From NCBI GenBank assembly GCA_036679605.1, contig JAZDCZ010000419.1, positions 192,001 through 256,000 on the forward strand: a stretch of DNA of 64,000 nucleotides, read 5' to 3'. Numbering within the stretch: position 1 is the stretch's first letter; each line of letters opens with the position of its first letter. Of this stretch, positions 7,962 through 40,692 are shown in pieces. The notes beneath the pieces were generated by a model. That model saw nothing but the letters and a program-made list of their open reading frames with translations, was not told the DNA's origin and searched no databases. Both the position numbers and the translations under genes were made by a program. The DNA is from Gemmatimonadota bacterium. GTDB taxonomy: Bacteria > Gemmatimonadota > Gemmatimonadetes > Gemmatimonadales > GWC2-71-9.

Positions 7962-8201
7962 ATGAGCGACATCAACTGTGTACGATGCCAGAAAACAGGA
8001 GCGCAGCTTGCAGCGCCGCCATTGCCCAACGATCTCGGTAACAAGATCTATGACTCTATCTGCCAGCCTTGTTGGGACGAATGGCTCAAGCAGCAGACAG
8101 CGGTCATCAACCACTATGCATTGGATCTGCGCAACCCCGAAGCCCGGCAGATGCTGATGGAACAGACGGAGACCTTTCTGTTTGGCCAGCCAACAGCCTG
8201 A
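7962..8201 (+). CDS. Fe(II)-trafficking / oxidative damage protection protein (YggX-like)
   Basis: PPLPNDLGNKIYDSICQPCWDEWLKQQTAVIN matches the YggX family pattern. Confidence 0.85.
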   Translation: MSDINCVRCQKTGAQLAAPPLPNDLGNKIYDSICQPCWDEWLKQQTAVINHYALDLRNPEARQMLMEQTETFLFGQPTA

Positions 8202-8721
8202 CACCTCCAGCCGCCGCTCCATCAGTCTTGTTGTAAACGACGAGCGAACAGAAATCGCGTTCGCTCCACACAAGACATTGCTCGAACTCCTGCGTGAAGA
8301 TTTGGAGCTAACAGGAACGAAGCACGGCTGCGAGCTGGGTGAGTGTGGAACGTGTACGGTGATTCTAAACGGACAACCCGTCCTCAGCTGTTTGGTTCTT
8401 GCACTCGCATGCGACGGCATGAGAGTGGACACAGTAGAGGGCATGGCGCAGGGCCCCACCCTGCATCCATTACAGGAAGCGTTCGCCGAGATGGGCGCTG
8501 CACAGTGCGGCTACTGCACTCCCGGCATTCTGCTCACCGCACAGACGCTGCTCGACGATAACCCATCGCCCGAACGTGATGAGATCAAAGACGCTCTCGC
8601 GGGCAACCTTTGTCGCTGTACCGGATACATCAAGATTTACGAGGCAGTCGAACTCGCCGCAGCGCGCATACGAGGTGAACCAGCCGAGCCGACTCACGAG
8701 TCCATGTATGGCAAAAGATAA
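8182..8721 (+). CDS. [2Fe-2S] subunit of xanthine-oxidase-family enzyme (HcrC/CoxS-like)
   Basis: GCELGECGTC, QCGYCTPG, NLCRCTGY. Confidence 0.95.
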   Translation: MASQQPDTSSRRSISLVVNDERTEIAFAPHKTLLELLREDLELTGTKHGCELGECGTCTVILNGQPVLSCLVLALACDGMRVDTVEGMAQGPTLHPLQEAFAEMGAAQCGYCTPGILLTAQTLLDDNPSPERDEIKDALAGNLCRCTGYIKIYEAVELAAARIRGEPAEPTHESMYGKR

Positions 8722-25365: not shown

Positions 25366-26433
25366 CTACTGTCGCCTCTCTCTGAAGAACGAGCCCCCTG
25401 ACCTATTCCTGCGGCGGAAGGAACTGTCGCTCTCCGGCAGCTCGGCTGTGACCGTCATGCGGCTCTTCTTCCGCATGATAGTAAACGCGATCGTCTCACC
25501 AGCGTCGTAGGACCGGATCATTCGAAGCGCGTGAGCCGCGCTAGTCGGCTTTCGATCGCCGATGTTCAGAATGACGTCGCCGGTCTTCAGGTTGAGGGAC
25601 GATTCCCTTGGAGCCCGGACGATCAGCAACCCCTCATCGGTTCCGAAATAGTCACCCAACTCTTCGTCCAGACTAACCAGTTCGATGTCGAGCCATTGCA
25701 GTGGCACGGACCCGAAAGGAAGTCCCCGCACGGAATATGGTTGCGGGCCTACTCGCACGCGCGGAGCTAATTCTTCGAGAAGTCGAAGACTCGGATCGCC
25801 TGAGAAGCTGAAAGAATAGGACTCGGATTCCAGTTTCCGCAGAATGACGTCGGCGTCGTGGTTCTCCGCGCCGCGGCGGTATTCCACGTGTAGAGTGTCA
25901 CCTTCCTCGAGTTCGTTCTTGATCCGGACGAGCTTGTTTCCCGGCGATATGCTCCATCGATCGGCTCGCCCAAGAGTCTCTCCGTTCGCCTTGGTAATAA
26001 CGTCTCCTGCCTCGAGGCCTGCTTCGTCGGCTGGCCCACCTTCGACCACGCTCTCCAAGCCTGCACCGACGGAGTCGTTGTCGTCATCGCTACTAGTACT
26101 CAAGTAGACACCCATCTGGATCCGGTTGCCGCCGACGAACGACAACGTGCGAAAGGCATCACCTGTTGAGACGAACAAGCGATTCCTATTCAGTTCATTG
26201 ATTGCGGAGCGCAAACCGGATACGAGTCGCTCCATTTCCCGCCGCGCCTCCCTGCTGTCATCTTCACGCAGCAGTCGCAGAGCCTCTTCTAACTGTCCTC
26301 GGGCTTTATCGAGCTGCTGCTCCGCTCGCTCGCGTCTGGCCTCTTCACTGCTCTGCTGAGCGTAGGCCACACCACTACCTCCTACGGCCAACAGAAACAG
26401 GGAAGCAAGAACTGCTCTTGTCTTCACTTTCAT
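25366..26433 (-). CDS. Secreted tandem-PDZ protein
   Basis: Signal peptide, coiled coil, VVEGGPADEAGLEAGDVI and LKTGDVILNI PDZ motifs. Confidence 0.85.
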   Translation of the reverse strand: MKVKTRAVLASLFLLAVGGSGVAYAQQSSEEARRERAEQQLDKARGQLEEALRLLREDDSREARREMERLVSGLRSAINELNRNRLFVSTGDAFRTLSFVGGNRIQMGVYLSTSSDDDNDSVGAGLESVVEGGPADEAGLEAGDVITKANGETLGRADRWSISPGNKLVRIKNELEEGDTLHVEYRRGAENHDADVILRKLESESYSFSFSGDPSLRLLEELAPRVRVGPQPYSVRGLPFGSVPLQWLDIELVSLDEELGDYFGTDEGLLIVRAPRESSLNLKTGDVILNIGDRKPTSAAHALRMIRSYDAGETIAFTIMRKKSRMTVTAELPESDSSFRRRNRSGGSFFRERRQ

Positions 26434-26478
26434 TGTACACTCACTCCTTACTTGATCCGGCATTCCAGCCCGGACCTA

Positions 26479-27066
26479 CTAGAATCCGACGTATGCTGCC
26501 CGTCGGACCTGTGTATTAATCAACGCATCCATCAACAACAGACGTTGACGGAACAAACCTGTGAGTTGTTCTCGGGATACAACCACCTGTCGAGCTGCCG
26601 AGAGGTGTGTATCAATCATGGTTATGCGATCTTCGAGATCGGCGATCGCAAGTGCCGTCATTCCATTCACGACTCGCCCATCCATTCGAACGTCATGAAG
26701 CACACTATCCAATTGTCGTGATTGGCTGGCCAGCATCTGCAACTCGGTAACCGAATTGGGAACCGCTGCCGTTCTATGCACAAAACCATTCACGCCAACC
26801 AGCAACGCAAATGACGCCGCAGCAGCCCAGCCGGCTCTGAGCCAACCAGCTCTGCGTCGCTCTTTTTGAATGGCACGACCAACCTCCGACCAACGATCCC
26901 GCGGTGCACTGATACTCGGTAGCGCCTTGAGCGCCGCAACCCGCTGGTGGATCCGGTCTAGCTCATCTCGGCATTCAGCGCATTCGTCCACATGAGTTCG
27001 AGCGCCCAACAAGCCGTCCCCATTTCGTACATCGAGTAGCTCTTGAATTGTACAATGTCTCAACAT
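26479..27066 (-). CDS. zf-HC2 anti-sigma factor
   Basis: HVDECAEC (HxxxCxxC), TM helix; ATG overlaps the sigma stop. Confidence 0.8.
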   Translation of the reverse strand: MLRHCTIQELLDVRNGDGLLGARTHVDECAECRDELDRIHQRVAALKALPSISAPRDRWSEVGRAIQKERRRAGWLRAGWAAAASFALLVGVNGFVHRTAAVPNSVTELQMLASQSRQLDSVLHDVRMDGRVVNGMTALAIADLEDRITMIDTHLSAARQVVVSREQLTGLFRQRLLLMDALINTQVRRAAYVGF

Positions 27067-27611
27067 CACGCCTCCTCGCCGAGCATCGTTCTCAACCGCG
27101 CATGAGCACGCGAAAGTTGCGATTTCGAGAAACTCACTGTTTTCCCCATTAGCTCGGCTATCTCCTCGTGTGTGTAGCCCTCTACGTCGTGCAACCACAC
27201 CACCGCCCTGCTCGTGTCCGACAGACACTTCAATGCGTCCTCCAGATCGAGCCGGAGGCCGGATTGTCCCTCCAGCGACCATCTCCCAGCAAACTCCTCG
27301 TGCAGTTCCTCAGTATTCCGGTACTTCTCATACCTCACACGCATCAGTGCTTTGCTGGCAGCTATGCGCTTGATCCATGATGTCATGCTCCCGGCCTGGT
27401 CACCACGGAATTTTTTTATGCTGCGGCAGACCTCCAGGAAAGTTTCCTGAAGCACATCTTCCGCATCTTCCGCGGTGCGGCATATTCTCCGAGCCATTGT
27501 GTAGACCAGACCCTGATAGCTCCGATACAAGCCTTCGAGAGCTGCAAGGTCGCCGGTCTTGGCCCGGCGAATCGCCATGTCGTCGACTGCAACCAAGGAC
27601 ATTTGCGTCAT
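27066..27611 (-). CDS. ECF RNA polymerase sigma factor
   Basis: DAEDVLQETF, WIKRIA, LHDVEGYTHEEIA. Confidence 0.92.
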   Translation of the reverse strand: MTQMSLVAVDDMAIRRAKTGDLAALEGLYRSYQGLVYTMARRICRTAEDAEDVLQETFLEVCRSIKKFRGDQAGSMTSWIKRIAASKALMRVRYEKYRNTEELHEEFAGRWSLEGQSGLRLDLEDALKCLSDTSRAVVWLHDVEGYTHEEIAELMGKTVSFSKSQLSRAHARLRTMLGEEA

Positions 27612-27755: not shown

Positions 27756-28868
27756 TTGAAGAGAACGGACGCAAGCGACCTTTGGCGTCACCACCTCCAG
27801 GATGAGGCCGACGCCGCGTTCCTATACCGAATTCTGGCTGACGCGGAACCCACCGACAAGAGGAGTGATCTGTACCGTCGTCTGGCCGATGTCGAGGACC
27901 GGCATTCAAAGCTCTGGTGCGAGGTTCTGGAACAACATGGCCATGAGGCGCCCGTGCCAGGTCCCTCGTTCAGAGCGAGGCTGCTCGCCAAGATAGCAAC
28001 AATGTTCGGTCCCACTCTGCTGCTACCACTGCTGCTGAGAGAAGAAGGTCTCGAGGTTAAGGGATACCTCGACATGTACCGACAAAGTGAACCCGGCACT
28101 GCGCGCGACACCGCTCTCACCTTGGCAAAGGAATCAGCCGAACATGCGACGGCGCTGGGCCAGCTTTCAGATGCGGTGGGTGAGCCGTGGCACAGCACTG
28201 GGTCGGGTGGTTTTCTCCGCAACGTCATCTATGGGTTCAATGACGGGTTGACGGCTAACTTCGGCTTGGTTGCGGGTGTTATCGGAGCGGCGTTCGAGTC
28301 TCACATCGTGCTCGTGTCGGGCTTGGCAGGAATGATTGCGGATGCTCTATCGATGGGTTCCTCGGGATACTTGGCTGCGAAAACCGAACGCGAGGTTTAT
28401 GCAAACGAGATCGCGATGGAGCGCGAAGAGATTCGGCTCATGCCCGAACTCGAGGAAGAGGAACTTGCACTGCTGTACGAGGCCAAGGGTGTCGAGACCC
28501 AGCGCGCCCACGAGATGGCACACGACATTATGCGAGACCCTGAGCGCGCGCTAGCCGAAAAGGTGCGCGAAGAACTCAAAATAGGTGATGCACACACTAC
28601 ACCTGTCAACGAAGGTCTCATTACCGGTATCGCTACTGCGGTTGGAGCGTTCATACCCTTCGCTCCGTTTCTCTTCATGGAGGGTCAGGCCGCAGCGCTC
28701 ACTGCTTTCTTGCTTGCGATGACCTCGCACTTTGCCGTGGGTGCGGCAAGGAGTTTCTTCACCGGGCGCGGACTATTCAAGAGCGGCTTAGATATGTTTG
28801 TGGTCGGACTCGGCGTTGCCGTGGTGGGCTACCTGGTTGGTGACCTTGTCGCCAAGGCGTTGACCTGA
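27756..28868 (+). CDS. Rubrerythrin-like + VIT1/CCC1 iron/manganese transporter
   Basis: ExxH motifs N-terminal; RNVIYGFNDGL, ADALSMG; start approximate (27726 or 27756). Confidence 0.88.
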   Translation: MKRTDASDLWRHHLQDEADAAFLYRILADAEPTDKRSDLYRRLADVEDRHSKLWCEVLEQHGHEAPVPGPSFRARLLAKIATMFGPTLLLPLLLREEGLEVKGYLDMYRQSEPGTARDTALTLAKESAEHATALGQLSDAVGEPWHSTGSGGFLRNVIYGFNDGLTANFGLVAGVIGAAFESHIVLVSGLAGMIADALSMGSSGYLAAKTEREVYANEIAMEREEIRLMPELEEEELALLYEAKGVETQRAHEMAHDIMRDPERALAEKVREELKIGDAHTTPVNEGLITGIATAVGAFIPFAPFLFMEGQAAALTAFLLAMTSHFAVGAARSFFTGRGLFKSGLDMFVVGLGVAVVGYLVGDLVAKALT

Positions 28869-28952
28869 CTAGACCACGAGATTAACCAACCGGTCCTGAA
28901 CGTAAATCGATTTTTTCACGTCGCGACCATCCAAGGACCGGCGCACCGCATC
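28869..28952 (-). pseudogene. leuS: Displaced 3' end of leuS (84 nt, att-like direct repeat)
   Basis: 72/84 nt identical to 38248-38331; encodes DAVRRSLDGRDVKKSIYVQDRLVNLVV* vs DAVLRALDGREVRKSIYVQDRLVNLVV*. Confidence 0.9.
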
Positions 28953-28989
28953 GTGCAGTCGATCCGAAGATTGGGTTCGCTTGGTACGG

Positions 28990-29085
28990 TCACTGGAAGC
29001 AGAAGCCGAACTCAGTAACAGTATATGTGTATTGGTCACTTGCCGTACTTTCACCATCGTTTACTTCAACCTTTATCTCGGGCAC
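28990..29085 (-). pseudogene. Orphan C-terminal fragment of an Ig/PKD-like domain
   Basis: EIKVEVNDGESTASDQYTYTVTEFGFCFQ* resembles the LRLNVLDSGGADGFDQLSATVNSQAPPCLN* tail at 31782-31943. Confidence 0.4.
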
Positions 29086-29137
29086 CGCGGCCATCATGGT
29101 CCTGTCGCTGTGCAGAACGGCGGGTAGTGCGACGGCG

Positions 29138-30394
29138 TTAACCAGTGGGATCCACCACTTTCCCGATAAAGAGAATGGTCCCCGAAATCCGCTCGCGCAG
29201 CACGAAGAGGAACGGCTGGTCGATGACGAACGGCGGCGGCTCACTGATCATGCCGAAGCTGACGGACGTCACCGCCGCCGCTTCCGTGCCCACCTCGTCC
29301 ACCTTGACAAACGTCTTGTGTTGGACCGTACGGATGAAGAGCCCAGCGCCGGGAGTGATGTTGCTGAAGTCTGCCAGCGCTGCGTCGAATGCAATCCCCA
29401 TCCCCAGCGCCGAGAGCACGTCGTTCATTGTGATCTTGTACTCGAACTGGAACTTGGGCATCACCACGATCTTGTTTGCGCTGTCGACCTCGAGCCCGGC
29501 GGTCCACGCCTGCCAGCGATCGCGATCGAACGCGGCGATCACTTCGTCTAGCGTGACACCCGCTGCTGGCACCGCCGCCACCATCGTGAACGCCCCACCG
29601 CCGTACGGCATCTCGATCACGTTCGCCAGTTGGTCGCCGCTGATCCGAACGGGTACCGGGTCCGCATGCGACATGGTGGGGACCGACCTCTCCGTGCCAT
29701 CTCTTAACGTGAACGGCCGGTCGCTGGTGAGCGACTTGTCGAACTGGTTGGTCCAGTCACCCTTGAAGAACACGGCGTTGATCACGAACAGCATGGTTGA
29801 GCGATCGATGGGCCTCGGCGCGATCGAATCGATCCGTCCGTTGGTGTGATCCCTTACCCATCCATCGATAATGTCGGGCGCGTTGGGGGCGCCGAAATCC
29901 AGGGCCTCCACCTGAGCATCGAAAAAGGTGGTGGCCGCGTCCAAGAAGGTGGGGAGCACGGGGGCCTCGGGCCGATGCCATATGGAGTTGGCGAGATTGA
30001 ACGTCACCCGGCGATCCAGATTGACCAACAGGTCGATCAAGCCGCGGTAGCCGTCATTGACCTGGTCGATGGCAAGCCCCTCGAATCCCAAGGTCTTGGC
30101 CATCGAGTCTCTCGTCGCTCCGGCGGCGCCATTGTACGTCATGCCGAGCGCCATGCTCACGCTCAACGGCGAGATAAAGAGGTTTTCGTCGGGATTGGCC
30201 TGGGCATCCACCGCGCGGAACAGACGCATGGCGAAGGAATTGTCGGACTCCACCAACGCCAGCTCCGCCGCGGTCAGCTCCCGGGGCAACACTTCGATGG
30301 GTCCCATGGGTCCTAAGGAGTTGCCACCACCACCGCAGGCAACGGCGAAACCGATGACGGGCACGAACGCGATACGTTTACAGACACGCTTCAT
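29138..30394 (-). CDS. Serpin, lipoprotein
   Basis: Lipobox AVAC; NLFISPLS, NAVFFKGDW, hinge EVGTEAAAVT, FVIDQPFLF..ILFIG. Confidence 0.95.
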   Translation of the reverse strand: MKRVCKRIAFVPVIGFAVACGGGGNSLGPMGPIEVLPRELTAAELALVESDNSFAMRLFRAVDAQANPDENLFISPLSVSMALGMTYNGAAGATRDSMAKTLGFEGLAIDQVNDGYRGLIDLLVNLDRRVTFNLANSIWHRPEAPVLPTFLDAATTFFDAQVEALDFGAPNAPDIIDGWVRDHTNGRIDSIAPRPIDRSTMLFVINAVFFKGDWTNQFDKSLTSDRPFTLRDGTERSVPTMSHADPVPVRISGDQLANVIEMPYGGGAFTMVAAVPAAGVTLDEVIAAFDRDRWQAWTAGLEVDSANKIVVMPKFQFEYKITMNDVLSALGMGIAFDAALADFSNITPGAGLFIRTVQHKTFVKVDEVGTEAAAVTSVSFGMISEPPPFVIDQPFLFVLRERISGTILFIGKVVDPTG

Positions 30395-30457
30395 GATTGG
30401 GTACCTCCGTTATCAAGACAATACACACAGTCACGTAGACCTGTCGCGGTTGGCCGG

Positions 30458-31618
30458 CTATGGTGGCGTCACGGCCCACAGCCCCGCGCGGGTCCCGACG
30501 AGCAGCCGACCGTGGGCCGCATCGACCGCCGTCGCCGTCCCCGTCGCGCCCAAGGCCCCCCGGGGCACGGCGAGCGAGTCCCAACTCGCGCCGCCATTCG
30601 TCGTCCGGTACCACCCCAGGTCCGTCAGTTCCCGGAAGGTGCCGTCGGGATTCTTTTCGAATTCAAGGAACACGGTGGCCGCATAGAGCACATCGTTGAG
30701 CTCGGCGAAACCCGCCACCGCACCACGCGGACCCGCGGCACAGTCCCACGAGCCCCTTGCACCCGCCTCGTCAGATTGCATCAGCCCTAACTCGGCCCCG
30801 AGGAACAGTCGGTCTGGCACGTTGGGGGCCAGGGCGAGTGCGTTGGTCGGCGTCTCGACGACCACGCTGTTGCATGTGGGAACTCCTGCGTCCCAGGTCT
30901 CGCCCCAGTCTGTGCTAAAAACGACAAACGGAACGAAGATGTTGCCCTGCCCCGCCACCCAGAGCAGGCCTGTGCGCGCCGGATCGATCAGGATGTCCAC
31001 GTGCCACGCGCAAATGTTGAAGCTTCCGAACACGAACTGCCACGTCTCTCCGGCATCGAGCGAGCGCAGCACGCCGTGGCAGTTGCTCATGAACACCCGC
31101 TGCGCGTTGCCGGGGTCGACCTCCAGGTCGTCAACGAAGACGCGGTACGGGTTGCGGGACTCCGTCGCCAGCCCCCCGTCAAACGGCACCCACGACTCCC
31201 CCCGGTCGAAGCTGGCGAAGACCGCGGCGCTCGTTGTGTCTTCCTTGGAGCCGTTGCGAAACGTCACGCCCGCGAGGAGGCGCGGCGGGTCGGCCGGAAC
31301 ATAGAGCAGCGCCTTCGGGATGAGGTGGTTGTGCCAGGCTTGCGGACCCAGCGCCGTCCACCCGCCGTCCGACTCGAGCCGGAAGATCCCGTGGTCGTTC
31401 GTGCCCGCGAACAGTCCCCAGGGCGTTACGGCGACCTCGGCTATCCACTCCGACTCGAGCCCCAGCAACGTCCAGCAGCCGCTGTCGAGTTCCAGCGGGC
31501 ATACCTGCGAAGAAGATAGGCTATCCGAGCAGGCGGCGAACATGCCCGCCACAGAAACGACGACGACGGAGCGAACCAGCCAATCCGCCACACGGCCGGA
31601 AATGTGTTGCCGTGCCAT
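30458..31618 (-). CDS. Asp-box (BNR) beta-propeller lipoprotein
   Basis: AAGGAG RBS; lipobox FAAC; SFDRGESW, SLDAGETW, STDWGETW, TTNGGASW. Confidence 0.8.
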   Translation of the reverse strand: MARQHISGRVADWLVRSVVVVSVAGMFAACSDSLSSSQVCPLELDSGCWTLLGLESEWIAEVAVTPWGLFAGTNDHGIFRLESDGGWTALGPQAWHNHLIPKALLYVPADPPRLLAGVTFRNGSKEDTTSAAVFASFDRGESWVPFDGGLATESRNPYRVFVDDLEVDPGNAQRVFMSNCHGVLRSLDAGETWQFVFGSFNICAWHVDILIDPARTGLLWVAGQGNIFVPFVVFSTDWGETWDAGVPTCNSVVVETPTNALALAPNVPDRLFLGAELGLMQSDEAGARGSWDCAAGPRGAVAGFAELNDVLYAATVFLEFEKNPDGTFRELTDLGWYRTTNGGASWDSLAVPRGALGATGTATAVDAAHGRLLVGTRAGLWAVTPP

Positions 31619-31781
31619 ATGAGCGCTCCTTTGATGTTTAAGGATTACCGAAGCCTCACCCGCGACGGCCCGCCACCGTGCCGCCGGGGTCAACCGCCCG
31701 CACACGAACGCACCTCCTCTGTTTGAACTAACCCCATGCCCGATGGAAAGTTGCAGGGGTCCGGCGGCACCGCGGGCCGGT

Positions 31782-33489
31782 TCAGTTCAGACACGGCGGG
31801 GCCTGAGAGTTGACGGTAGCAGACAACTGATCGAACCCGTCGGCACCACCGCTATCCAACACGTTGAGCCTCAAGGTGTAACGCGACAGATCTCCCGTCC
31901 AGACGGTGACGTAACTGTCGCTCCCTATCGGAACGCCATTCCTGCCACTGATATGAGTACATTCCCGTGCCACCAGATACCGCCGAGTCATAGAAGCAGT
32001 ATTCATCCGGTGGGACCATCGTGGAACCAAAGATCGTAACATTCAGGGAAGGGGGTGGCGGGGGGTCCGGGACGCCAACGGCGCGCGCCGCGTCGAGCAC
32101 ACCGTGGCCGAGGTAATCGTCCCGCCCGCCCGCGCCCAGACCATCCGCGGTGTTGAACAGCCGATCCACGATCTGCTGATTCGTCCAGGTTGGATTCTGC
32201 TCTCGAAGCAGGGCGGCCGCGCCCGAAACGTGCGGTGTCGCCATCGAGGTGCCGCACCAACCCGAGGTTTCGTCCTCGTAGCTGTTATTGCCGACCGTGC
32301 TCAGGGCCCAAAACGGCGCCGCAAGGTCCACGTAAACGCCCTTGTTCGAAGCGACCGTTTGGGATGGATCGTTTGGATATGTGCAGGGACTGCTGCCGGC
32401 GAAGCTGCCGTCGGTTTTCACTCCCGAGACGCCGATGACATTCGTGTACTCGGCAGGGTAAAAGTTGGTGGGAGATGACTGGGCGCTGCCCCTGTTTCCG
32501 GCTGCCGCCACGAGCACGACCCCGTCGCTCCACGCCTGGGCGACAGCATTCGCCATCCCGGCGTCGAAAACAGTACCCCCCAGGCTCATGCTCAGCACAT
32601 CGAAAAAAACGCTCGCCTGGATACCAGAGATAATGTCAGTGGTGGGGCACCCGAACTGAATCGGTCCAGAAAAACAGGCGCCGTAAACGAAGACGTCGGA
32701 GGGCGCAACCCCGGGCGCGGCGCCTACCGCTCCGATGCTGTTGTTGCGCGCGGTGAAGATGCCTAGAACGTGGGAGCCGTGCCAGAACGGACCGTCATCG
32801 CAGCCGCCCTCGTTTCCCGCGCAATTGGCGAGTGGCACAAGCGGAAGGTCCTGGTGGCCCCGGTCGTGCCCGGTGTCGATGATCTGAATCTTGGCGGTGG
32901 CACCGGTCGCGCTGTCCCACGCCTCTGGGGCGCGCACGAGATCCATGCCCCATGGTATCGTCTGACCGTTCAGCGATGCCCTCCCGAACGCCTTGATAGG
33001 CGCCTCCACGCCCTGCACAGACAACCGCTGGAGCGGTTCGATATAGTCCACCAGCGGATGGTCGCGCAGAAGCGTAGCCGTCCCAGCCGGCAACAGAACG
33101 TGCGCAGCCCCCATGAACCAGTAGAACTCAATGACCGTGACGCCCCGCTGGGCCAGGACCGCAAGGGCAGCGTCGATCGTGCCCCGGGGAATCGCCTCGC
33201 GCCGCCCGGTCTCGAGCGCACGCGGTGAGGCCGGGGTTTTGAACGCGATCACGGCATGGCCGTCTTCCTCGGCGATCGCCTGCTCCAGTGCGACCGCACT
33301 GGTGTCCCAGGGGCGGGGCTCGGGTGGCAGGTCGATCGTGACGGCCGGGACATCCTGTACCTGAGCTGCTGGCATGCCGGAGAGTCGTGCCGCTACGTCG
33401 CTGTCCGCAATAGGCGGATTCGGCAGATCGGAACATGCCGTCAGTACACTGAGCGCCATGAGCGTGGCGCAGGCGGAACTCCTTACCAT
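31782..33489 (-). CDS. S8 subtilisin-like lipoprotein protease with frameshifted C-terminal Ig/PKD-like domain (as sequenced, ORF stops at 31852)
   Basis: GGAGG RBS, lipobox LTAC, IDTG, HGSHV, AAAGN, GTSMATPHV, poly-Pro linker; frame change at ~31944. Confidence 0.9.
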
Positions 33490-33570
33490 AGTACACCTCC
33501 TTGTGATGAAAGGCACCCGAATCGCCATAATGCTCGGTCAGATGGGCGACGACGATTCTCATGCCTAGCA

Positions 33571-33601
33571 TACAGGGGTCCTGAACACGCCAAAGGTTAC
33601 A
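33571..33601 (-). promoter_or_regulatory. Island ECF promoter motif, copy in front of the S8 gene
   Basis: TGTAACCTTT-ggcgtgttcagga-CCCCTGTA on minus strand. Confidence 0.8.
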
Positions 33602-33792
33602 CGCCAAATACGATCACTTTTGCACACACGACTCAAGTTGTTGCTTTGCAGCAAGTTACGTGTCATGTTCGCGAACTCGAATAGCTCCTCGGCCACGGAA
33701 CGGTCAGCTGAACGCCCGCTCGAGATCGAAGAGACCAGGAACCTGGCCGGCGGCTCACAATCGCACCGCGCACCATCAACTGGATCTTCGCA

Positions 33793-33823
33793 TGTAACCT
33801 TTGCCGTGTTGAACGCCCCTGTA
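33793..33823 (+). promoter_or_regulatory. Island ECF promoter motif, copy in front of the peptide gene
   Basis: TGTAACCTTT-gccgtgttgaacg-CCCCTGTA. Confidence 0.8.
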
Positions 33824-33870
33824 CTGAAGACAGGTGGTTGACGAGAGGCACTCAACACGGAGGATTCCTC

Positions 33871-34089
33871 ATGCAAGTTCCACTACGTAGACTGATACTT
33901 GTCGCTGGTGCCGCGGTCGCTCTGACGGCCATACCCTTGGCGGTCACAGAGTCTGAAAACCGGGTCTCGCTCGGTGTCAGTGACGCATGCGCTCAGGGTG
34001 GTTTCTGCTGTCGCCACGAACAGGGTTCGCTGTGCCCCAGTAGCATACCGGACGGGCAGCCCAAGGGTGACTACACGCCTTGTGGCTAG
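33871..34089 (+). CDS. Small secreted Cys-rich peptide (72 aa)
   Basis: GGAGG RBS; hydrophobic leader; C-terminal DACAQGGFCCRHEQGSLC..TPCG; own promoter motif. Confidence 0.8.
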   Translation: MQVPLRRLILVAGAAVALTAIPLAVTESENRVSLGVSDACAQGGFCCRHEQGSLCPSSIPDGQPKGDYTPCG

Positions 34090-34149
34090 TTAGCTACACT
34101 GATCCGACGTTGAGTTCGGGTACGATAAAAGCTGAGTATCACCAATCGC

Positions 34150-35265
34150 ATGGGGGCAGTTTTCATGCAATGTAGGTGCACTCTCCGCCGGGTCGGTCTC
34201 GCGTGGAGCCTTTCATTGTTAGCGCTGCTCACCCATGCGTGCGGCAGCGAGTCAACCAGCGGGCTACGGTACGGACCGGCTGAACTCGATCACGCGGCCG
34301 TTGGGGTCATTGATGTGAAGAGTAGGACCCTCTTCGAGTCGGACACCCTCGCGCTTCCCTCTGACATAGCGCTCGTAGGCGACAACGTGGTCGTCATAGA
34401 CAATGCCAACGAACCCGCCCTATTCGTTGTAGACAGAACGAGTGGAGAACTGCTGCGTGCGATCGGGAGGCGTGGAGACGGCCCTGGCGAGTTCCGGCAG
34501 CCCTGGACTCTCGACGCTGTTTCGGGTAGCACATCGGAGGTGTGGGTCTACGACTTGGGATTGGGTAGGCTCACAAAGTTGGATGTAACCACCTCTGAGG
34601 ACGCCGCAAGCAGCCGGATCGTTAACCTTGGGAGCAACGGCGCTACAACGGGTCCGATATGGACCGATGCCAACACGATCGTGAGCCTGGGACTCTTTGC
34701 GACCGGACGCCTGGCCGTGTTCAACGTGGACGGCGAGCGGACGGGCACCTTTGGAGTCGTCCCGCTCGGCCCGTCGACGGTCCCGGCAACGGTGAAGCAG
34801 CACGCCTATCAGGCAACACTGGTTCCACATCCCGAGCGACACCTAATGGCAGCGGTCACGAGACACGCCGGCCGCATCGAGTTATATCGGTCCGACGGCT
34901 CGACCGTCGCCATGCTCGACGGCCCGCTGCCCTTCGAGCCCCGCTACACCGTTGGTTCGAATGCGCGCGCAGCGGTGCTGCGAACCGGAGACGACCTGCG
35001 ATTTGGTTATATCGACGGAGCGGGCTCTAACAAATACATCTTCGCACTGTTCTCCGGCAGGACACGGGAGGGATTCCCCGGGCGTGCAAACTTCGCTAGG
35101 TTCGTACACGTATTCGATTGGAAAGGAACCTTCCAGAAAGCGCTGCGCCTGGACCACGACGTGCTGAGCATCGCCATAGACAGGGGGTCAACGACTCTGT
35201 ACGCCGTTACGCACGATCCGACACCGGCAATACTGAGCTACTCGTTATCCATGTTCGTACCGTAG
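34150..35265 (+). CDS. 6-bladed beta-propeller lipoprotein (BF3164/TolB-like)
   Basis: Lipobox THAC; IGRRGDGPGEF; YIFALFSG; VHVFDWKG. Confidence 0.8.
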   Translation: MGAVFMQCRCTLRRVGLAWSLSLLALLTHACGSESTSGLRYGPAELDHAAVGVIDVKSRTLFESDTLALPSDIALVGDNVVVIDNANEPALFVVDRTSGELLRAIGRRGDGPGEFRQPWTLDAVSGSTSEVWVYDLGLGRLTKLDVTTSEDAASSRIVNLGSNGATTGPIWTDANTIVSLGLFATGRLAVFNVDGERTGTFGVVPLGPSTVPATVKQHAYQATLVPHPERHLMAAVTRHAGRIELYRSDGSTVAMLDGPLPFEPRYTVGSNARAAVLRTGDDLRFGYIDGAGSNKYIFALFSGRTREGFPGRANFARFVHVFDWKGTFQKALRLDHDVLSIAIDRGSTTLYAVTHDPTPAILSYSLSMFVP

Positions 35266-35290
35266 GGTTTTCTGGGTACATGCAGCTCGT

Positions 35291-37453
35291 TTAGGAACCG
35301 TCGTCTGCCACATTCACAGCGGTAGGCGCGGTTAGAGCCTCGAGCACGCGCACGATTTCGTCCAAAGAGTTCTCGGACAGCCGTATGCGACTCGACTTGT
35401 CCAGCACCAGGTAAAGCGGTGTCTCCCACAGACCGAGCGCGTCGCGTGCCTTCCCATCCACATGAAAGACTCTCGGTGCGGACGGGTGCTCCTGAACGAA
35501 ACGGTTGAGAGCTAGGGACTGTGACTCCGCCGTTAATATCAACACGCGAACGCCGCGCGGTTCATAACGGGCAGTGACTTGCTGTAAGCGCGGCAGTTCA
35601 CTCAGACACGGGGCGCACAACCAGGACCAGAACGCCACGAGCGTAACTTGGCCACCCGTGAGTTCGTCAAGTCGATGACTGGCACCCGCCGAGTCGGTCA
35701 ACTCCACACCACCACGCACAAAGGTGTTACTCGTGCCGCCGAGAACGCGCTCGTACATCTCGTCTCGTGCGACCCTTGTCAGCTCTGTCCATCGAGCGCC
35801 GTTCACGAGGCCGGTCGCCAGCGCCGCAAGCGAATCCCGGGCAGTAGTCGTGGTATTCGGGTCGACCGCCAGTCTGGCCAACATGCCAACCGCACCGGCC
35901 GTATCGGCAATGCCGAGCCTTACCTCGGCCGATACTCCAAAGACCTCCGTATCCCATCCGGTCGCCGCCGCCTGGTCCAGAGCGTCGAGACCGGCCTCGG
36001 TATCGCCCAACTGCACGAGCGCCCTACCTAGCGGTGCGAGGACTCGGCCACCCTCCGCCTCGTCGTAGCGCCGCTGCTCGCCGATGGTGCGAGTCAGAGG
36101 CCGTCTCCAACCGGCATCGGTGTCAGTGCGTGCCAGCTCATCACGCAGCCGCTCTACAGCGACCCTTCTCAATTCCGGCAGCTCGGCCAGTTGCTTCGCT
36201 ACGGCAAGTGCCGCCCACGGTTTCAGCGCCACGCGGCGGTCGGCCCATCGCAGTATCGCGTCTGGGTCTCCCGCCCGCAGTGCCACAGAAAGTCCCATCC
36301 GAGGCAGTTGAAAGGAGACTGCGCCAACTTCTTGCCACAGACCCTCCAGTTCCCGCAGCGCTCCATCGCGATCGCTCCCATGCGCCGCGATGATCCGAAA
36401 GACACGTTGTTGCACTGCCTGAGGATGGCCCGGTGCTTCAGTTAGCAGCCGATCGCGCCAATAATCGACCCTCCCCGGATCTTGCTCTGCGATGAATCCC
36501 AGCCAGTATAGTCCCGCCAACGTGTCGCCGCTAAGCGAAATGTCATTGGCAAACCGGCTATGCAACTCCTCATAGCGCGCGCTCCAACGTCCGGAGAAAT
36601 CGGTCATGCCGCGCGATCGGGATAAACTTTTCTCAAACCCCGCTAGTCGCGACCAGGCATCGGGATCGTCGGGATATACCTCGGTGGCCCGCCTCGCAGC
36701 TTCCAGACCTCCTTGCCAGTTTCGTCCGCTCAAATCGTTTTGTTGCTGCACCAACGCCCGATAATCCGGCTCGTCGCCATTGAAGACCAGAAGCTCCCAC
36801 AACGCACCACGGTTGCTGTCAACGCGCGCACCCAGCGTATCCTCCACCGCGAATACCGCGTACACCACCGAGTCGGGAAGCTGAACGCTGCCCTCGAATC
36901 TCCTGCGTCCGACTTTCTCCAGTTGAGCCACCACAATCTGTCGGGCGCCGGGATCGTACTCCCGATCGGCAGCCGTCCTGTAGCGAGCGCGGAGTACCAG
37001 GCGAGCTTCGCCCGCGAGCATCGAGGTACTGCGGTACTCCACAGCAATCAGATCGCCGCGCTCGGGCTTCTCGGGTGTCAAGATCAACTCTCCCGACACC
37101 CGCTCGGCCCCCAAGTCCGGAAGCGAGCGAACCAGGAGAGCGCCTGCGCCCACCAGGGCAACCAGCGCGGCGGCTATCATGCCCAGTCGTTTGGGCAGCG
37201 CCGGAAACGGGTCGGACAGCGGCAAAATCACCCGCTCCCCGGCCGCGCGTCTCGCCAGCACGCGTTGCAGGATTGCGGCAGGCGGTTTCTGTGTTGGAAT
37301 TGATCGGGCCTGCTCATCCAGAGCCTGAATCGATGCCACCGTGTTGCGGCACGGCAGGCAAGCGGCCAAATGCTCGGCTACCCGACTACGTCTCTTGGTG
37401 GATAATTCGCCGTCGACGAAACCATGCAGTTCTGAACGAGAGAGGTGTCTCAT
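35291..37453 (-). CDS. zf-HC2 anti-sigma fused to TPR-like region and TlpA-type thioredoxin domain
   Basis: MRHLSRSELHGFVDGEL..HLAACLPC, TM, helical repeats, C-terminal FWSWLCAPCLSELP..ETPLYLVLD. Confidence 0.8.
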   Translation of the reverse strand: MRHLSRSELHGFVDGELSTKRRSRVAEHLAACLPCRNTVASIQALDEQARSIPTQKPPAAILQRVLARRAAGERVILPLSDPFPALPKRLGMIAAALVALVGAGALLVRSLPDLGAERVSGELILTPEKPERGDLIAVEYRSTSMLAGEARLVLRARYRTAADREYDPGARQIVVAQLEKVGRRRFEGSVQLPDSVVYAVFAVEDTLGARVDSNRGALWELLVFNGDEPDYRALVQQQNDLSGRNWQGGLEAARRATEVYPDDPDAWSRLAGFEKSLSRSRGMTDFSGRWSARYEELHSRFANDISLSGDTLAGLYWLGFIAEQDPGRVDYWRDRLLTEAPGHPQAVQQRVFRIIAAHGSDRDGALRELEGLWQEVGAVSFQLPRMGLSVALRAGDPDAILRWADRRVALKPWAALAVAKQLAELPELRRVAVERLRDELARTDTDAGWRRPLTRTIGEQRRYDEAEGGRVLAPLGRALVQLGDTEAGLDALDQAAATGWDTEVFGVSAEVRLGIADTAGAVGMLARLAVDPNTTTTARDSLAALATGLVNGARWTELTRVARDEMYERVLGGTSNTFVRGGVELTDSAGASHRLDELTGGQVTLVAFWSWLCAPCLSELPRLQQVTARYEPRGVRVLILTAESQSLALNRFVQEHPSAPRVFHVDGKARDALGLWETPLYLVLDKSSRIRLSENSLDEIVRVLEALTAPTAVNVADDGS

Positions 37454-37458
37454 CACCA

Positions 37459-38013
37459 CTAGTCTCCTATGATCCTTCGGAGCATGTCTTTGGCGCGGTA
37501 CAGCCTGACCTTGGACGTTCCGGTGGTTATACCAACCATTCTTGCGATCTCCGAATGTGCATAGCCTCCGATCACCCTCATCACAAAGACAATACGCAGG
37601 GATTCCGGAAGATTCGCGATTGCTTCCTCGATCATCATGCGGTCCACGTGCCCCGGAGGCTCCTCTGCGGTTTCGCTCGGCGAGAGAACTTCCAGAGGAA
37701 CCTCGGCTCGCCGCTTTGACGAGCGATTTCTCCGATACGCGGTTCTGAATGCCACCGTCTTGATCCACCCTTCCAGACTGCCATGTCCTTTGTATCCGTG
37801 CAAAGCCTCCGCCAGGTCCATGAACACATCTTGAACGACATCCATGGCGTCTTCGTGCGATTTCGTCAGTCGCACCGCTATACCAAAAACCATTGCTCCA
37901 AACCGCTCAAACAGCTCCGCGATGGCCTCCGGCTCGCCCGACCGCGCCCGGCTCAGGAAAGCGGGTGATTCGAACCGGTCGTTCGCGTCGGTCACCGACA
38001 GCGACGCCCCCAT
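37459..38013 (-). CDS. ECF RNA polymerase sigma factor (island)
   Basis: DAMDVVQDVF, WIKTVA, GYAHSEIA, SKVRLYRA. Confidence 0.92.
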   Translation of the reverse strand: MGASLSVTDANDRFESPAFLSRARSGEPEAIAELFERFGAMVFGIAVRLTKSHEDAMDVVQDVFMDLAEALHGYKGHGSLEGWIKTVAFRTAYRRNRSSKRRAEVPLEVLSPSETAEEPPGHVDRMMIEEAIANLPESLRIVFVMRVIGGYAHSEIARMVGITTGTSKVRLYRAKDMLRRIIGD

Positions 38014-38035
38014 GGAGGCAACGCGGGCCCTATAC

Positions 38036-38066
38036 TACAGGGGCCACGAAGGAGCAAAAGGTTACA
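38036..38066 (-). promoter_or_regulatory. Island ECF promoter motif, autoregulatory copy
   Basis: TGTAACCTTT-tgctccttcgtgg-CCCCTGTA, 22 bp upstream of the sigma ATG. Confidence 0.8.
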
Positions 38067-38247
38067 TGACGTCAATTTCATCGACCGGCTAGAATACGCA
38101 TAAGTCCCCTGTCTTCAAGTCTTTAGCCGCATTGTACCGGCGATCGGCGATCGACAGAACCAACGCCATTTCGTATGCGACTATCAGATTGGGACAGGTT
38201 GAGATTTCCGGCTCCCTCTGGCGAGAAAACCGCTGGCTACTCTAGTA

Positions 38248-40692
38248 CTAGACTACGAGATTAACCAACCGATCTTGCACGTAGATCGATTTTCTTACTT
38301 CCCGACCATCCAATGCCCGGAGCACCGCATCATCTTCCAAAGCGAACTCGAGCACCTGGTTCTCGGGTAGTCCACGTGTTACGTGAAGTCGAGACCTAAC
38401 CTTACCGTTAACCTGAACCACCACCACCACATCCTCCGCATCGGCAAGCGCGGCGTCAGATACAGGCCATTTTGCGTCGAACACGCTGTCGTCATGCCCC
38501 AAGCGCTCCCAGGATTCCTCAGAGAAATGTGGAGCAAACGGTGCCAACATCACGATCAGCGGTTCCACCATATCGCGATCTACAGAAGCATCGGAATTGT
38601 CTTTCGCACCGCTAACGTCACGCAGCAAATTCAGGTATTCCATGAGGCCGGCGATCGCGGTGTTGTAGCGCAACTCCTCTGTTGCATCCGTCACCTTGCG
38701 GATCGTTTGATGCAATTTCTGTAGCGCTCGACCACTCTTCGCCTCGGGACGTGGCGAGGCCTGCGACACCAAGCCCCATACTTTGTCCAGAAAGCGACGC
38801 ATTCCCGAAATTCCGTCGTCTCTGAAATCGCCGCCTTCCAAGTAGGGTCCGAGGAACATCAGGTACATCCGGAACGTGTCCGCTCCCCATTTCGACAGAT
38901 AATCATCAGGGATGACGGTGTTGCCGCGGGATTTCGACATCTTGGCCCCATCCTTAACGATGGTTCCGTGGGCCCGAAATTTAGGGAATGGTTCTTCGAA
39001 CGTTATGTGTCCGAGATCGTGCAGCGCCATCGTTATGAATCGCGAGTACATGAGATGGAGCACCGCGTGTTCGTTACCACCTATATACGATTGTACGGGC
39101 AGCCATTTTTTCGTCAACTCCGTGTCGAATGGCCGATCCCGAAATTCCGTCGACGGATACCGCAAGAAATACCAAGAGCTATCGAGAAACGTGTCCGAAA
39201 CGTCGGTTTCGCGCGTGGCTTCTTCTCCACAACTAGGACACGGTACCTTGTACCACTCTTCGTGCCGCGCAAGTGGTGATTCGCCCGTCTCGTCGGGTTT
39301 GAAATCTTCGATCAACGGTAGCAGCACTGGAAGTTCTGAGTCGGGAACCGGTACCGTACCACATTCCTTGCAATAGATTACCGGAATGGGCGGTCCCCAG
39401 TAACGCTGCCGTGAGATGCACCAGTCGTGTAGCCTATACTGAATCTTAGCCTTGCCAAGTTGCTTTTCCTCCAGCCACTCGCTGACTGATTTCACGGCCT
39501 CGCTACATGCCATTCCATCGAACCGTCCACTATTCACGATCGTGCCGTCCCAGCCACTGAAGGGAAGGTCCGTGGGTTCCTTAGGCTCTACAACCTGCCT
39601 TATCTCCAGGCCAAAGCCCTTGGCAAATTCGTAGTCGCGTTCGTCATGTGCCGGCACTGCCATGATGGCGCCCGTTCCGTACTCCATTAGCACATAGTCC
39701 GCGATCCATATCGGAACGGATTCACCTGTCGCCGGATTCCTGGCGTACGTGCCCGTAAAAACCCCGGTCTTGATCTTGTCCCCAACCCTTCGCGACACCA
39801 GGTCTTTCTGTATTGCGCTTCGGCGGTATTCGTTGACTTCTCTCTGCTGCTCTGCCGCCGTCACCACGTCCACCATCGAATGCTCCGGTGCAAGAACTAG
39901 GTATGTAGCACCAAACACCGTATCCGGCCGAGTCGTATAGACCCGGATCGGCGTTCCGGATGGAGTCTCGAACACAAGTTCAGCACCTTCGGAGCGTCCA
40001 ATCCAGTTCTGTTGCATCCTCCGGGTCGACTCGGACCAATCGAGCCTGCTGAGACTGTCTAGCAGGCGCTGCGCGTACTTGGTAATGGTGAAGAACCATT
40101 GATCGAGCATGCGCTGATGTACACGCGTTTCCAAATGACGCTCACAATATCCGTCAATCACCTGTTCGTTGGCCAGCACGGTTTTGCACTCCGGACACCA
40201 GTTGACCGGCGCTTTTTTCTTCACCGCCAAGCCGGCTTTGAAAAGCTGCAGAAAGATCCACTGTGTCCAGCAATAGTACTCGGGATCAGTGGTGGTCAGC
40301 TCATGGTCCCAGTCGAACATGAGACCCATTCGCTTCAACTGCTGCCGGAACCGTGAGATGTTGTCCGGTATCAGTTTGTTGGGGTGAGTGTTCACCTTCA
40401 GGGCGAAATTCTCCGAGTGAATCCCGAAGGCATCGAATCCTATCGGCTCGAACACATCCCACCCTTGAAGCCGCTTGAACCGGCCGTGGATGTCCACACC
40501 TACAAACGCAAAGACATTGCCAACGTGAAGTCCCTCCGCCGATGGGTAGGGAAACATCATGAGGTTGTAGTATGGCCGCTCGGCTTTACGTAGGTCTACC
40601 GAATGCGTGCGGTGCTCCTCCCACCGACCGCGCCATTTCTCCTCAACGGCCTGGGGGTCGTAGTCAGCTGTCAATTCTTCCCTATCGGACAT
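38248..40692 (-). CDS. leuS: Leucine--tRNA ligase
   Basis: MFPYPS..LHVGN (HIGH), TTRPDT editing domain, SRQRYWG, KMSKS, VQVNGKVR. Confidence 0.98.
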   Translation of the reverse strand: MSDREELTADYDPQAVEEKWRGRWEEHRTHSVDLRKAERPYYNLMMFPYPSAEGLHVGNVFAFVGVDIHGRFKRLQGWDVFEPIGFDAFGIHSENFALKVNTHPNKLIPDNISRFRQQLKRMGLMFDWDHELTTTDPEYYCWTQWIFLQLFKAGLAVKKKAPVNWCPECKTVLANEQVIDGYCERHLETRVHQRMLDQWFFTITKYAQRLLDSLSRLDWSESTRRMQQNWIGRSEGAELVFETPSGTPIRVYTTRPDTVFGATYLVLAPEHSMVDVVTAAEQQREVNEYRRSAIQKDLVSRRVGDKIKTGVFTGTYARNPATGESVPIWIADYVLMEYGTGAIMAVPAHDERDYEFAKGFGLEIRQVVEPKEPTDLPFSGWDGTIVNSGRFDGMACSEAVKSVSEWLEEKQLGKAKIQYRLHDWCISRQRYWGPPIPVIYCKECGTVPVPDSELPVLLPLIEDFKPDETGESPLARHEEWYKVPCPSCGEEATRETDVSDTFLDSSWYFLRYPSTEFRDRPFDTELTKKWLPVQSYIGGNEHAVLHLMYSRFITMALHDLGHITFEEPFPKFRAHGTIVKDGAKMSKSRGNTVIPDDYLSKWGADTFRMYLMFLGPYLEGGDFRDDGISGMRRFLDKVWGLVSQASPRPEAKSGRALQKLHQTIRKVTDATEELRYNTAIAGLMEYLNLLRDVSGAKDNSDASVDRDMVEPLIVMLAPFAPHFSEESWERLGHDDSVFDAKWPVSDAALADAEDVVVVVQVNGKVRSRLHVTRGLPENQVLEFALEDDAVLRALDGREVRKSIYVQDRLVNLVV

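Follow-up and report, generated by a model that had tools for sequence, protein, structure and literature searches.

Sigma factors of the extracytoplasmic function (ECF) class provide a major route of signal transduction in bacteria, and for most of their groups the signal is unidentified. What, then, switches an ECF sigma factor whose neighbours encode a thioredoxin-bearing anti-sigma factor, a small secreted cysteine-rich peptide, a six-bladed propeller, a subtilase, a sortilin-like propeller and a serpin, and which of these genes belong to the switch itself? We consider this question here for positions 29138-38066 of a stretch of 64,000 nucleotides from a Gemmatimonadota bacterium (assembly GCA_036679605.1, contig JAZDCZ010000419.1, positions 192,001 to 256,000), the whole of which we call the window. 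An earlier reading of the same DNA, the original prediction, had described these seven genes as one island forming a closed peptide and redox loop. Scans against Pfam and NCBIfam find all seven genes, with the domains then claimed. The explanation that best accounts for the whole is, in our judgement and with moderate confidence, a self-contained, autoregulated ECF switch carried on a 9.4-kb island. The conserved unit within it consists of four genes, not seven: the ECF sigma factor, an anti-sigma factor of the zinc-binding anti-sigma (ZAS) type, the secreted Cys peptide and a BF3164/TolB-like propeller.

Conservation of the four-gene core

The linkage of these four genes across the phylum is a direct observation, drawn from anti-sigma-seeded and propeller-seeded loci of Gemmatimonadota genomes in a species-genome collection. 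A profile of the propeller finds matches in 56 of 401 genomes of the phylum, including 20 of 30 in one family (f6) and 18 of 166 in the window's own family, and approximately 19 kb around 40 of the best propeller places outside the window genome (G000) were scanned with our own profiles. Among the 26 loci with a close propeller (E <= 1e-59), 19 have adjacent sigma and anti-sigma genes and one has an anti-sigma gene at the contig edge; the remaining six have neither gene, and one of their contigs ends 115 nucleotides beyond the peptide gene. Of the 26, 14 contain the peptide at E <= 1e-3, and in eight others, at weaker scores, its slot is occupied by a secreted peptide of divergent sequence with three Cys ('LSTASC-x4-CG-x7-DC'); at one locus (L079), two three-Cys peptide open reading frames overlap the 3' end of the propeller gene or lie just beyond it. 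The 14 loci with a distant propeller have the sigma pair in no case and the peptide in one. The commonest order in the propeller loci is sigma, anti-sigma, peptide, propeller on a single strand, from which the window differs in having its peptide-propeller pair on the opposite strand with a promoter copy of its own. Tandem arrays of two or three modules (sigma/anti-sigma(/peptide)/propeller) occur at three loci (L084, L086 and L088, in genomes G267, G420 and G134), which suggests that the whole circuit is duplicated as a unit.

The same arrangement recurs within the window genome, which holds three four-gene loci and one locus with sigma and anti-sigma genes only. Full-length relatives of the window's anti-sigma factor lie on contigs C422 (86% identity), C294 (47%) and C13 (35%); sigma, peptide and propeller genes are arranged at C422 and C294 as in the window, and C13 is the locus without peptide and propeller. 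The assembly measures 6.7 Mb, where most relatives have 3-4 Mb, its contamination is 6.3%, and C422 is a contig of 12 kb. A second binned strain is a possible source of the C422 module, the divergent arm of which differs from that of the window in any case. In the species-genome collection, the anti-sigma-seeded search returned 20 loci, all in metagenome-assembled genomes of Gemmatimonadota, and one domain scan of the anti-sigma-seeded loci covered 135 of 165 open reading frames, leaving out 27 from two duplicate loci and three long ones.

The sigma factor, its anti-sigma factor and a private promoter

The sigma gene (37459-38013, minus strand) encodes 184 residues with matches to Sigma70_r2 (E 1.6e-13) and Sigma70_r4_2 (E 7.8e-14); regions 2 and 4 are present, and region 3 is absent. 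It scores 83.9 bits against TIGR02937 (sigma70-ECF), with a cut-off of 42.9, and classifies as an ECF (group IV) factor of the sigma-70 family. The other marks of ECF factors are also found, namely a cognate anti-sigma gene directly downstream, which starts 6 nucleotides past the sigma stop, and a putative autoregulatory promoter with AAC in its -35 element.

The anti-sigma gene (35291-37453, minus strand) encodes 720 residues, with Pfam matches to zf-HC2 (E 5e-7) and TPR_14 and, above cut-off, to Redoxin and AhpC-TSA. Its cysteines are four in all: 32 and 35, in an HxxxCxxC zinc motif, and 613 and 616, in the CAPC motif of the Redoxin domain. Across 37 sequences, H28 and C32 of the motif H28-x3-C32-x2-C35 are invariant and C35 is nearly so. 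A confident AlphaFold2 model, built on an alignment of 37 sequences (predicted local distance difference test, pLDDT, 88.7; predicted template modelling score, pTM, 0.79), lays out an anti-sigma domain at 1-70, a transmembrane helix at 93-110, a beta-sandwich at 122-222, a TPR superhelix of approximately 17 helices at 231-572 and a thioredoxin fold at 584-716. As modelled, the protein is a class I/ZAS anti-sigma factor of the single-pass type, with its N-terminal HxxxCxxC domain followed by one transmembrane helix. Foldseek relates its parts to TPR proteins and, for the C-terminal domain, to ResA, TlpA, DsbE and DsbF (template modelling score 0.7-0.8 on these targets), and in the PDB it finds no match to the complete architecture. 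The CxxC thioredoxin domain that had been claimed is borne out by these matches and by the modelled ResA/TlpA-like fold, in which C613-A-P-C616 is accompanied by a cis-Pro loop (ETP).

The catalytic motif has not been kept with the fold. The CxxC is intact in only four family members, the window, C422, C294 and L082, and the cis-Pro loop is intact along with it in both in-genome paralogs (C422 and C294). Approximately 18 relatives, mostly without peptide and propeller, have Cxx[S/A/N] with cis-Pro, and in approximately 24, most of them from family f6 with a peptide at the locus, the thioredoxin domain is Cys-less and cis-Pro is often gone as well. Redox catalysis is therefore not the conserved function of the domain. 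The thioredoxin fold is conserved as a module, probably with a role in binding, and redox chemistry is a lineage feature at most; the proposal that the peptide is folded or sensed through the thioredoxin domain is weakened by the same counts. One locus of the anti-sigma family without peptide and propeller (L030, JBDTAZ010000256.1) has as neighbours three redoxin/peroxiredoxin genes, CcdA/DsbD, a SoxA-like cytochrome c and a cupredoxin. Such a neighbourhood may be a periplasmic thiol-redox regulon, and it hints at thiol redox as the older theme of the anti-sigma family.

How far does the sigma factor reach? A 31-nucleotide ECF-type motif, TGTAACCTTT-N14-CCCCTGTA, matches the window three times, against 0.00 matches expected from 100 shuffles, and these three are the only ones in the whole genome assembly of 6,724,626 bases, in which the reversed control has none. 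One copy (38036-38066, minus strand) stands 23 nucleotides ahead of the sigma ATG, the second (33793-33823, plus strand) 48 nucleotides ahead of the peptide ATG, and the third (33571-33601, minus strand) 43 nucleotides ahead of the ATG of the subtilase (S8) gene. The copy at the sigma gene shows the blocks TGTAACC..CCTGTA, with AAC in the -35. A promoter motif common to the three transcription units, as first proposed, is thus present and is moreover unique in the genome, which supports a putative single ECF sigma regulon spanning the island. No additional copy is found ahead of the propeller, BNR or serpin genes; from their strand and the short gaps we infer that each is co-transcribed with the preceding gene. 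A scan of 28800-38300 for sigma-70 promoters and terminators returns two promoter-like sites, with 2.0 expected, and five terminator-like sites, with 6.9 expected, neither count exceeding chance.

The paralogous loci have promoter variants of their own, TGTGACCTTT..GCCACTGTA at C422 and TGTRACCTTT..GGCACC.GTA at C294, each in five copies and ahead of the same kinds of gene. Near the sigma genes of L072-L097 the exact window motif is absent, save for a similar GTAACTTT in L075, no de novo motif search having been made there. A remnant on contig C212 carries the C422-type promoter twice, together with a frameshifted sigma gene, a DUF5128 propeller and a DsbA-like gene. The C294 and C422 loci also share with the window a 34-nucleotide element, CTCAAGTTGwTGCTTTGCAnCAAGTTACGTGTCA (33632-33665, no strand assigned), which lies 30-65 nucleotides upstream of the divergent-arm promoter's -35 and contains CAAGTT twice at a spacing of approximately 18 nucleotides. 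It is kept in all three paralogous loci (also L019 ~8170-8205 and L018 ~7560-7600), the proteins of which are only 47-86% identical, and it may be the site of a second regulator.

The Cys peptide and its predicted docking on the propeller

The peptide gene (33871-34089, plus strand), with GGAGG 7 nucleotides 5' of its ATG, encodes a 72-residue precursor made up of a Sec-type signal peptide, a linker and the sequence DAC-x5-CC-x7-C-x16-C-G, with five Cys. A profile of the mature peptide, run against 1.84 billion representatives, finds 37 proteins at E <= 1e-3, of which 33 are 67-108 residues long and align at residues ~25-70. The small secreted Cys-rich peptide of the original prediction is in this way placed in a conserved family of 33 small-protein clusters. 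All members have a signal peptide with an 'LP[LIV]' end, a linker of 12-14 residues from there to DAC, and the pattern (N/S)DAC-A-x-G-x-CC-x-E-x-GS-x-C ... C; the Cys scaffold is conserved and the remaining sequence is variable. The covariation of the cysteines is observed directly: 29 of 35 members have five, one has seven and five have three, and in all five three-Cys members the two that are missing are the second Cys of CC and the C-terminal one, while no member has lost just one of these. This joint loss argues for a disulfide linking those two positions. The invariant cysteines that remain number three, which is odd.

The peptide gene is real, conserved and of a new family. No credible Pfam match is found for any of 36 members, and the window peptide matches nothing in Pfam or NCBIfam. 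A kinship to the NVEALA peptides (PF14055) of the Bacteroidota loci that the original prediction named is not borne out, as none of the 36 members matches that Pfam model even at E <= 5. Queried with the peptide, a protein atlas gives a best score of 0.82, below the useful range. That the C-terminal Gly might mark the peptide for amidation by a PAL-like propeller was also considered and rejected, since this Gly is not conserved.

The propeller gene (34150-35265, plus strand; 371 residues) begins 60 nucleotides after the peptide gene, and the pair converges with the anti-sigma gene. Its product scores 62.3 bits against PF15869 (E 6e-17; gathering cut-off 29.2) and matches PF17170 (E 3e-7), and its AlphaFold2 model has six four-stranded sheets (pLDDT 90.6). 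Pfam score and predicted six-bladed fold together place it in the BF3164/TolB_like family (PF15869). It has 81 relatives at E <= 1e-10, labelled 'BF3164 family lipoprotein' by their sources, and every named one is from Gemmatimonadota. Foldseek returns generic matches only, NHL domains on top and otherwise WD40 proteins, with no functional lead and no similar solved complex. The protein is a probable lipoprotein: its 'LLTHAC' is one residue off the lipobox pattern used here, and the Cys is conserved in the family.

Genomic linkage and in-silico binding both connect the peptide to this propeller, as the original prediction had supposed in putting forward a complex prediction. When residues 33-371 of the propeller and 26-72 of the peptide were modelled together, with our own alignments as input and three controls, three runs gave interface scores (ipSAE) of 0.87, 0.88 and 0.86, against 0.43 for the best control. 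The mark applied to this score is attained in 116 of 157 solved complexes and in 2 of 215 mismatched pairs. The runs share at least 67% of their contacts, with a pLDDT of 58-62 for the partner. In the predicted interface, the ExGSxC loop (50-54) and residues 56-72 of the peptide lie on one face of the propeller and span its six blades, contacting R238, a residue that 33 propellers share without exception, as well as neighbours of D135, R140 and Y287; as predicted, the interface has no need of the peptide linker. The peptide thus probably binds the propeller lipoprotein.

The island and its variable arm

The seven genes lie on an inserted island. First of all, its GC content is 0.60-0.67, against 0.55-0.57 for the flanking DNA. 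Second, the island is flanked by a VIT1 gene and a leucyl-tRNA synthetase (LeuRS) gene, the matches of which lie only 12 nucleotides apart on one contig of a congeneric genome that is 97% complete (G001); the 9.4 kb between them in the window genome are therefore extra. Third, a direct repeat of approximately 72 nucleotides, with approximately 85% identity by alignment, stands on both sides: the left copy (28868-28940, plus strand) is a duplicate of the LeuRS 3' end just past the VIT1 stop, and the right copy (38247-38320, plus strand) is the genuine 3' end of the LeuRS gene. Base composition, synteny and repeat agree with the proposal of a single island. A scan of the island genes finds no recombinase gene among them. 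A read joint of the 'goes back' kind and loose ends at 38247 were considered as signs of an empty site or a circle, and were discounted because the flanking repeat explains them. Just left of the island lies another ECF sigma gene (27066-27611, minus strand), unrelated to the first and followed by an overlapping 267-residue open reading frame without a Pfam family and by a PDZ-domain protein (25366-26463).

The three genes that are not part of the core form an arm on the minus strand. The S8 gene (31852-33528) encodes a subtilase lipoprotein (PF00082, E 4e-30) with the full catalytic triad, Asp218 (DTG), His250 (HGSH) and Ser428 (GTSMA at 426). It scores 44.9 bits against the QhpE model, with a cut-off of 165; a role in the maturation of quinohemoprotein amine dehydrogenase (QhpC/QhpE) was rejected on this sub-threshold score and on the absence of a radical SAM gene from the island. 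The last ~85 S8 codons (31782-32042) are 96% DNA-identical to the end of a gene on contig C311 (L021 7195-8457), which encodes an unrelated protease-like protein without a Pfam family and also has a BNR paralog (32%) behind it; the S8 C-terminus looks like a recently exchanged domain module. The second gene (30458-31621) encodes a BNR/Asp-box, sortilin-like propeller lipoprotein, for which the matches to BNR (E 1.4e-5) and Sortilin-Vps10 (E 5e-3) both fall under the Pfam cut-offs. The third (29138-30394) encodes a serpin lipoprotein that covers positions 2-370 of the 370 of PF00079 (E 7e-103) and carries the reactive-centre-loop hinge GTEAAAVT at 369-376, the signature of a putatively inhibitory serpin; from an alignment with alpha-1-antitrypsin we take its P1 residue to be Ile and its P4 residue Phe. 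Of the four lipoboxes that had been claimed for the island, those of the serpin, BNR and S8 proteins pass a PROSITE-style pattern, and that of the TolB-like propeller comes near, one residue short.

These three genes are local add-ons outside the conserved core, and the idea of the seven-gene composition as a conserved design finds no support in the comparison. Relatives of S8 or the serpin occur in none of the 65 other anti-sigma or propeller loci, and the BNR protein has one distant relative only. The 11 nearest serpin loci, examined to 1.5 kb on either side, contain no S8, BNR or sigma gene; serpins as such are widespread in the phylum (153 of 401 genomes, one unpublished genome counted in). 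At C422, the divergent arm consists of DsbA, a DUF5128 propeller, an unknown protein and a CarboxypepD_reg/Plug protein; at C294, it consists of an S41/PDZ protease, an unknown protein, a DUF5128 propeller and a CarboxypepD_reg/Plug protein. With DsbA or S41 standing in place of S8 under the locus's own motif, the arm is a variable slot for envelope proteins. TonB-dependent receptor genes of the CarboxypepD_reg/Plug kind and DUF5128 propellers recur beside modules of this family; sites in loci with such genes are L018 3432-4238, L019 2709-3671, L024 6557-8869, L039 7049-9361 and L124 7585-8331.

A proposed mechanism and its alternatives

In the autoregulated switch that we favour, the zinc-type N-terminal domain of the anti-sigma factor would hold the sigma factor at the membrane, and release would most likely proceed by regulated proteolysis, by analogy with other single-pass anti-sigma factors. 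Freed sigma would then transcribe three units from one private promoter type, those of sigma/anti-sigma, of peptide-propeller and of S8-BNR-serpin. The peptide, presumably exported via Sec, would have its C-terminal Cys bonded to the second Cys of CC in a single disulfide, in addition to its three invariant Cys, and would dock with its ExGSxC loop on the top face of the propeller lipoprotein. The peptide-loaded propeller may in turn be read by the ectodomain of the anti-sigma factor, with its beta-sandwich, TPR and thioredoxin parts; we infer such feedback because the genes share an operon and are duplicated jointly. In the window lineage, the intact CxxC may contribute a further input from thiol redox. 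S8, BNR and serpin would be lineage-specific outputs, a secreted protease and inhibitor set taken under the sigma promoter and standing outside the core mechanism. A bolder version, to which we give only a low probability, makes the peptide a periplasmic signal that a diderm bacterium produces for itself: the peptide, loaded on its propeller receptor, would form with it a complex that gates the anti-sigma factor through the TPR/thioredoxin ectodomain, in the CxxC lineage an unpaired invariant Cys of the peptide would exchange a disulfide with the anti-sigma factor, and the paralogous modules, several to a genome and each with a peptide, propeller and promoter variant of its own, would be orthogonal circuits, movable as islands.

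Several observations weigh against the autoregulated switch as we have drawn it. First of all, its parts can be found separately, since the anti-sigma factor and the peptide-propeller pair each occur without the other. The neighbourhood search baited with the anti-sigma factor, as originally proposed, did reveal co-occurrence in other Gemmatimonadota, but peptide and propeller stand beside the anti-sigma gene at only 4 of the 20 loci (G036 and G002 being among these genomes), and the anti-sigma ectodomain therefore does not in general need peptide or propeller. Conversely, the pair is found without sigma or anti-sigma genes within 8-9 kb at L076, L097 and L104. Second, in most peptide-bearing loci the thioredoxin motif has degenerated, and thiol exchange between peptide and anti-sigma factor therefore cannot be a conserved mechanism. 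Third, the complex prediction draws on shallow alignments (33 and 36 rows), the confidence in the partner is modest, and it was an unrelated control that scored 0.43. Finally, the output arm shows damage: the C-terminal, non-catalytic beta-sandwich of S8 is frameshifted by a 2-nucleotide deletion near 31943, the lost frame reaching 31782, and the same deletion is present in one contig of run X1. Nor was any motif or terminator found that would separate or join S8, BNR and serpin.

The alternative that survives best, although we consider it rather improbable, is a plain envelope-stress regulon, in which the anti-sigma ectodomain would sense a cue of its own (misfolded or thiol-damaged proteins, for example, in a chaperedoxin-like manner) and peptide, propeller, protease and serpin would all be outputs. 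The anti-sigma family is indeed broader than its link to peptide and propeller, and relatives without the pair keep Cxx[S/A] and cis-Pro, L030 with its CcdA/DsbD, redoxin and cytochrome c neighbours among them; the accessory arms, with DsbA, S41 and S8 proteases and TonB-dependent receptors, also fit envelope maintenance. What speaks against it is that at least two families of the phylum keep the peptide-propeller pair within the operon and that tandem arrays duplicate it along with sigma and anti-sigma genes, which is more the behaviour of an RseB-like part of the switch than of an output.

The closed peptide and redox loop first proposed, in which the CxxC thioredoxin domain and the propeller would sense the peptide, S8 would mature it and the serpin would damp S8, strikes us as unlikely. 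A single promoter type does precede the three units, and CxxC and cis-Pro are intact in the window copy and the two in-genome paralogs. With an odd number of invariant peptide Cys, a free thiol could be left to form a mixed disulfide, and the linker of 12-14 residues before DAC could be a propeptide. The inhibitory hinge of the serpin and its hydrophobic P1 and P4 (on the assumed alignment) would suit a subtilase as target, and the paralogous arms, too, have DsbA or an S41 processing protease. On the other hand, S8 and serpin are absent from all 65 other loci, the 11 nearest serpin loci lack S8, and subtilisin processing and serpin damping are without comparative support, the S8 gene itself being damaged. 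Moreover, most peptide-bearing relatives have a Cys-less thioredoxin domain with no cis-Pro, and the propeller interface is predicted with no need of the linker.

The weakest candidate, which we regard as very doubtful, is a bacteriocin-like peptide with the propeller as its immunity or carrier protein and the ECF pair switching production under envelope stress: small size, secretion, richness in disulfides and a Cys scaffold conserved amid variable sequence would fit such a peptide, diverged copies occur several to a genome and in tandem arrays (L084, L086, L088), tight binding to the adjacent lipoprotein is predicted and some loci have the pair without the sigma module, but the peptide has a Sec signal only and would end in the producer's own periplasm, the island is without double-glycine leader, C39/ABC exporter, modification enzyme or outer-membrane export gene, and the sigma/anti-sigma operon encloses the pair at most loci, which is unusual for toxin and immunity genes. 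A cluster for a ribosomally synthesized and post-translationally modified peptide or a class II bacteriocin was rejected, as the seven genes contain no double-glycine, C39, ABC exporter or modifying-enzyme domain and the peptide is of the Sec type.

Comparison with known systems

The autoregulated switch is of interest as a compact, portable circuit of one sigma factor, one private promoter and three units, and it offers two candidate periplasmic ligands, a disulfide peptide of ~45 residues and a propeller lipoprotein. The CxxC, CxxS/A and Cys-less variants of the anti-sigma factor provide a natural mutational series on the conversion of a thioredoxin from enzyme to sensor, and the paralog-specific promoter variants could serve as orthogonal parts for synthetic circuits. 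Our literature search found no paper on the four-gene unit, on the peptide or propeller family or on the anti-sigma architecture, and no functional data on BF3164, DUF5128, PF15869 or PF17170.

A published parallel to the anti-sigma factor is found among the ECF groups of Actinobacteria. ECF284 has a putative anti-sigma factor with AhpC-TSA homology (PMC7826278, supplement), that is, an anti-sigma candidate with a thioredoxin-fold domain, as in the window. It differs in having two transmembrane helices, in being confined to Actinobacteria and in lacking conserved context beyond the anti-sigma factor, and the portion of the source that treats it describes no TPR, peptide or propeller (PMC7826278). 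The main text of that paper mentions neither thioredoxin, TPR, propeller nor Gemmatimonadetes; in the portion of its supplement available to us ECF284 is the sole AhpC-like anti-sigma factor mentioned, and other parts may hold a matching group (PMC7826278).

Other systems resemble single features of the locus. FecI-FecR-FecA signalling was rejected as a model, as there is no FecR domain and TonB-dependent receptor genes occur in the paralogous loci only. In Bacteroidota, NVEALA-BF3164/DUF5128 pairs place a small secreted peptide beside a PF15869/PF17170 propeller, a likeness that the original prediction drew and for which we found no paper; the window peptide, however, is not NVEALA, and the Gemmatimonadota pair is tied to an ECF sigma and anti-sigma factor. 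The chaperedoxin CnoX (YbbN) joins a thioredoxin domain to TPRs, a combination that the window's anti-sigma factor also has, but in reversed domain order. With TlpA, ResA and DsbE, the C-terminal thioredoxin domain shares its fold, on which it superposes in the model, as well as CxxC and cis-Pro; unlike them, it is fused to an anti-sigma factor, and its catalytic motif is not kept in the family.

An overall likeness exists to the systems that pair an ECF sigma factor with a class I (ZAS) single-pass anti-sigma factor, such as RpoE-RseA-RseB, encoded in the E. coli sigma-E operon, and SigW-RsiW. As in these, the sigma gene is followed by that of a presumably co-transcribed single-pass anti-sigma factor with an N-terminal sigma-binding domain, which in the window bears HxxxCxxC. 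Also shared are putative autoregulation from an ECF promoter with AAC in its -35 and a periplasmic accessory protein encoded in the unit. The window's system departs from them in its ectodomain of approximately 600 residues, predicted to combine a beta-sandwich, TPRs and a thioredoxin fold, and in its accessories, a secreted Cys peptide and a six-bladed propeller taking the place of RseB.

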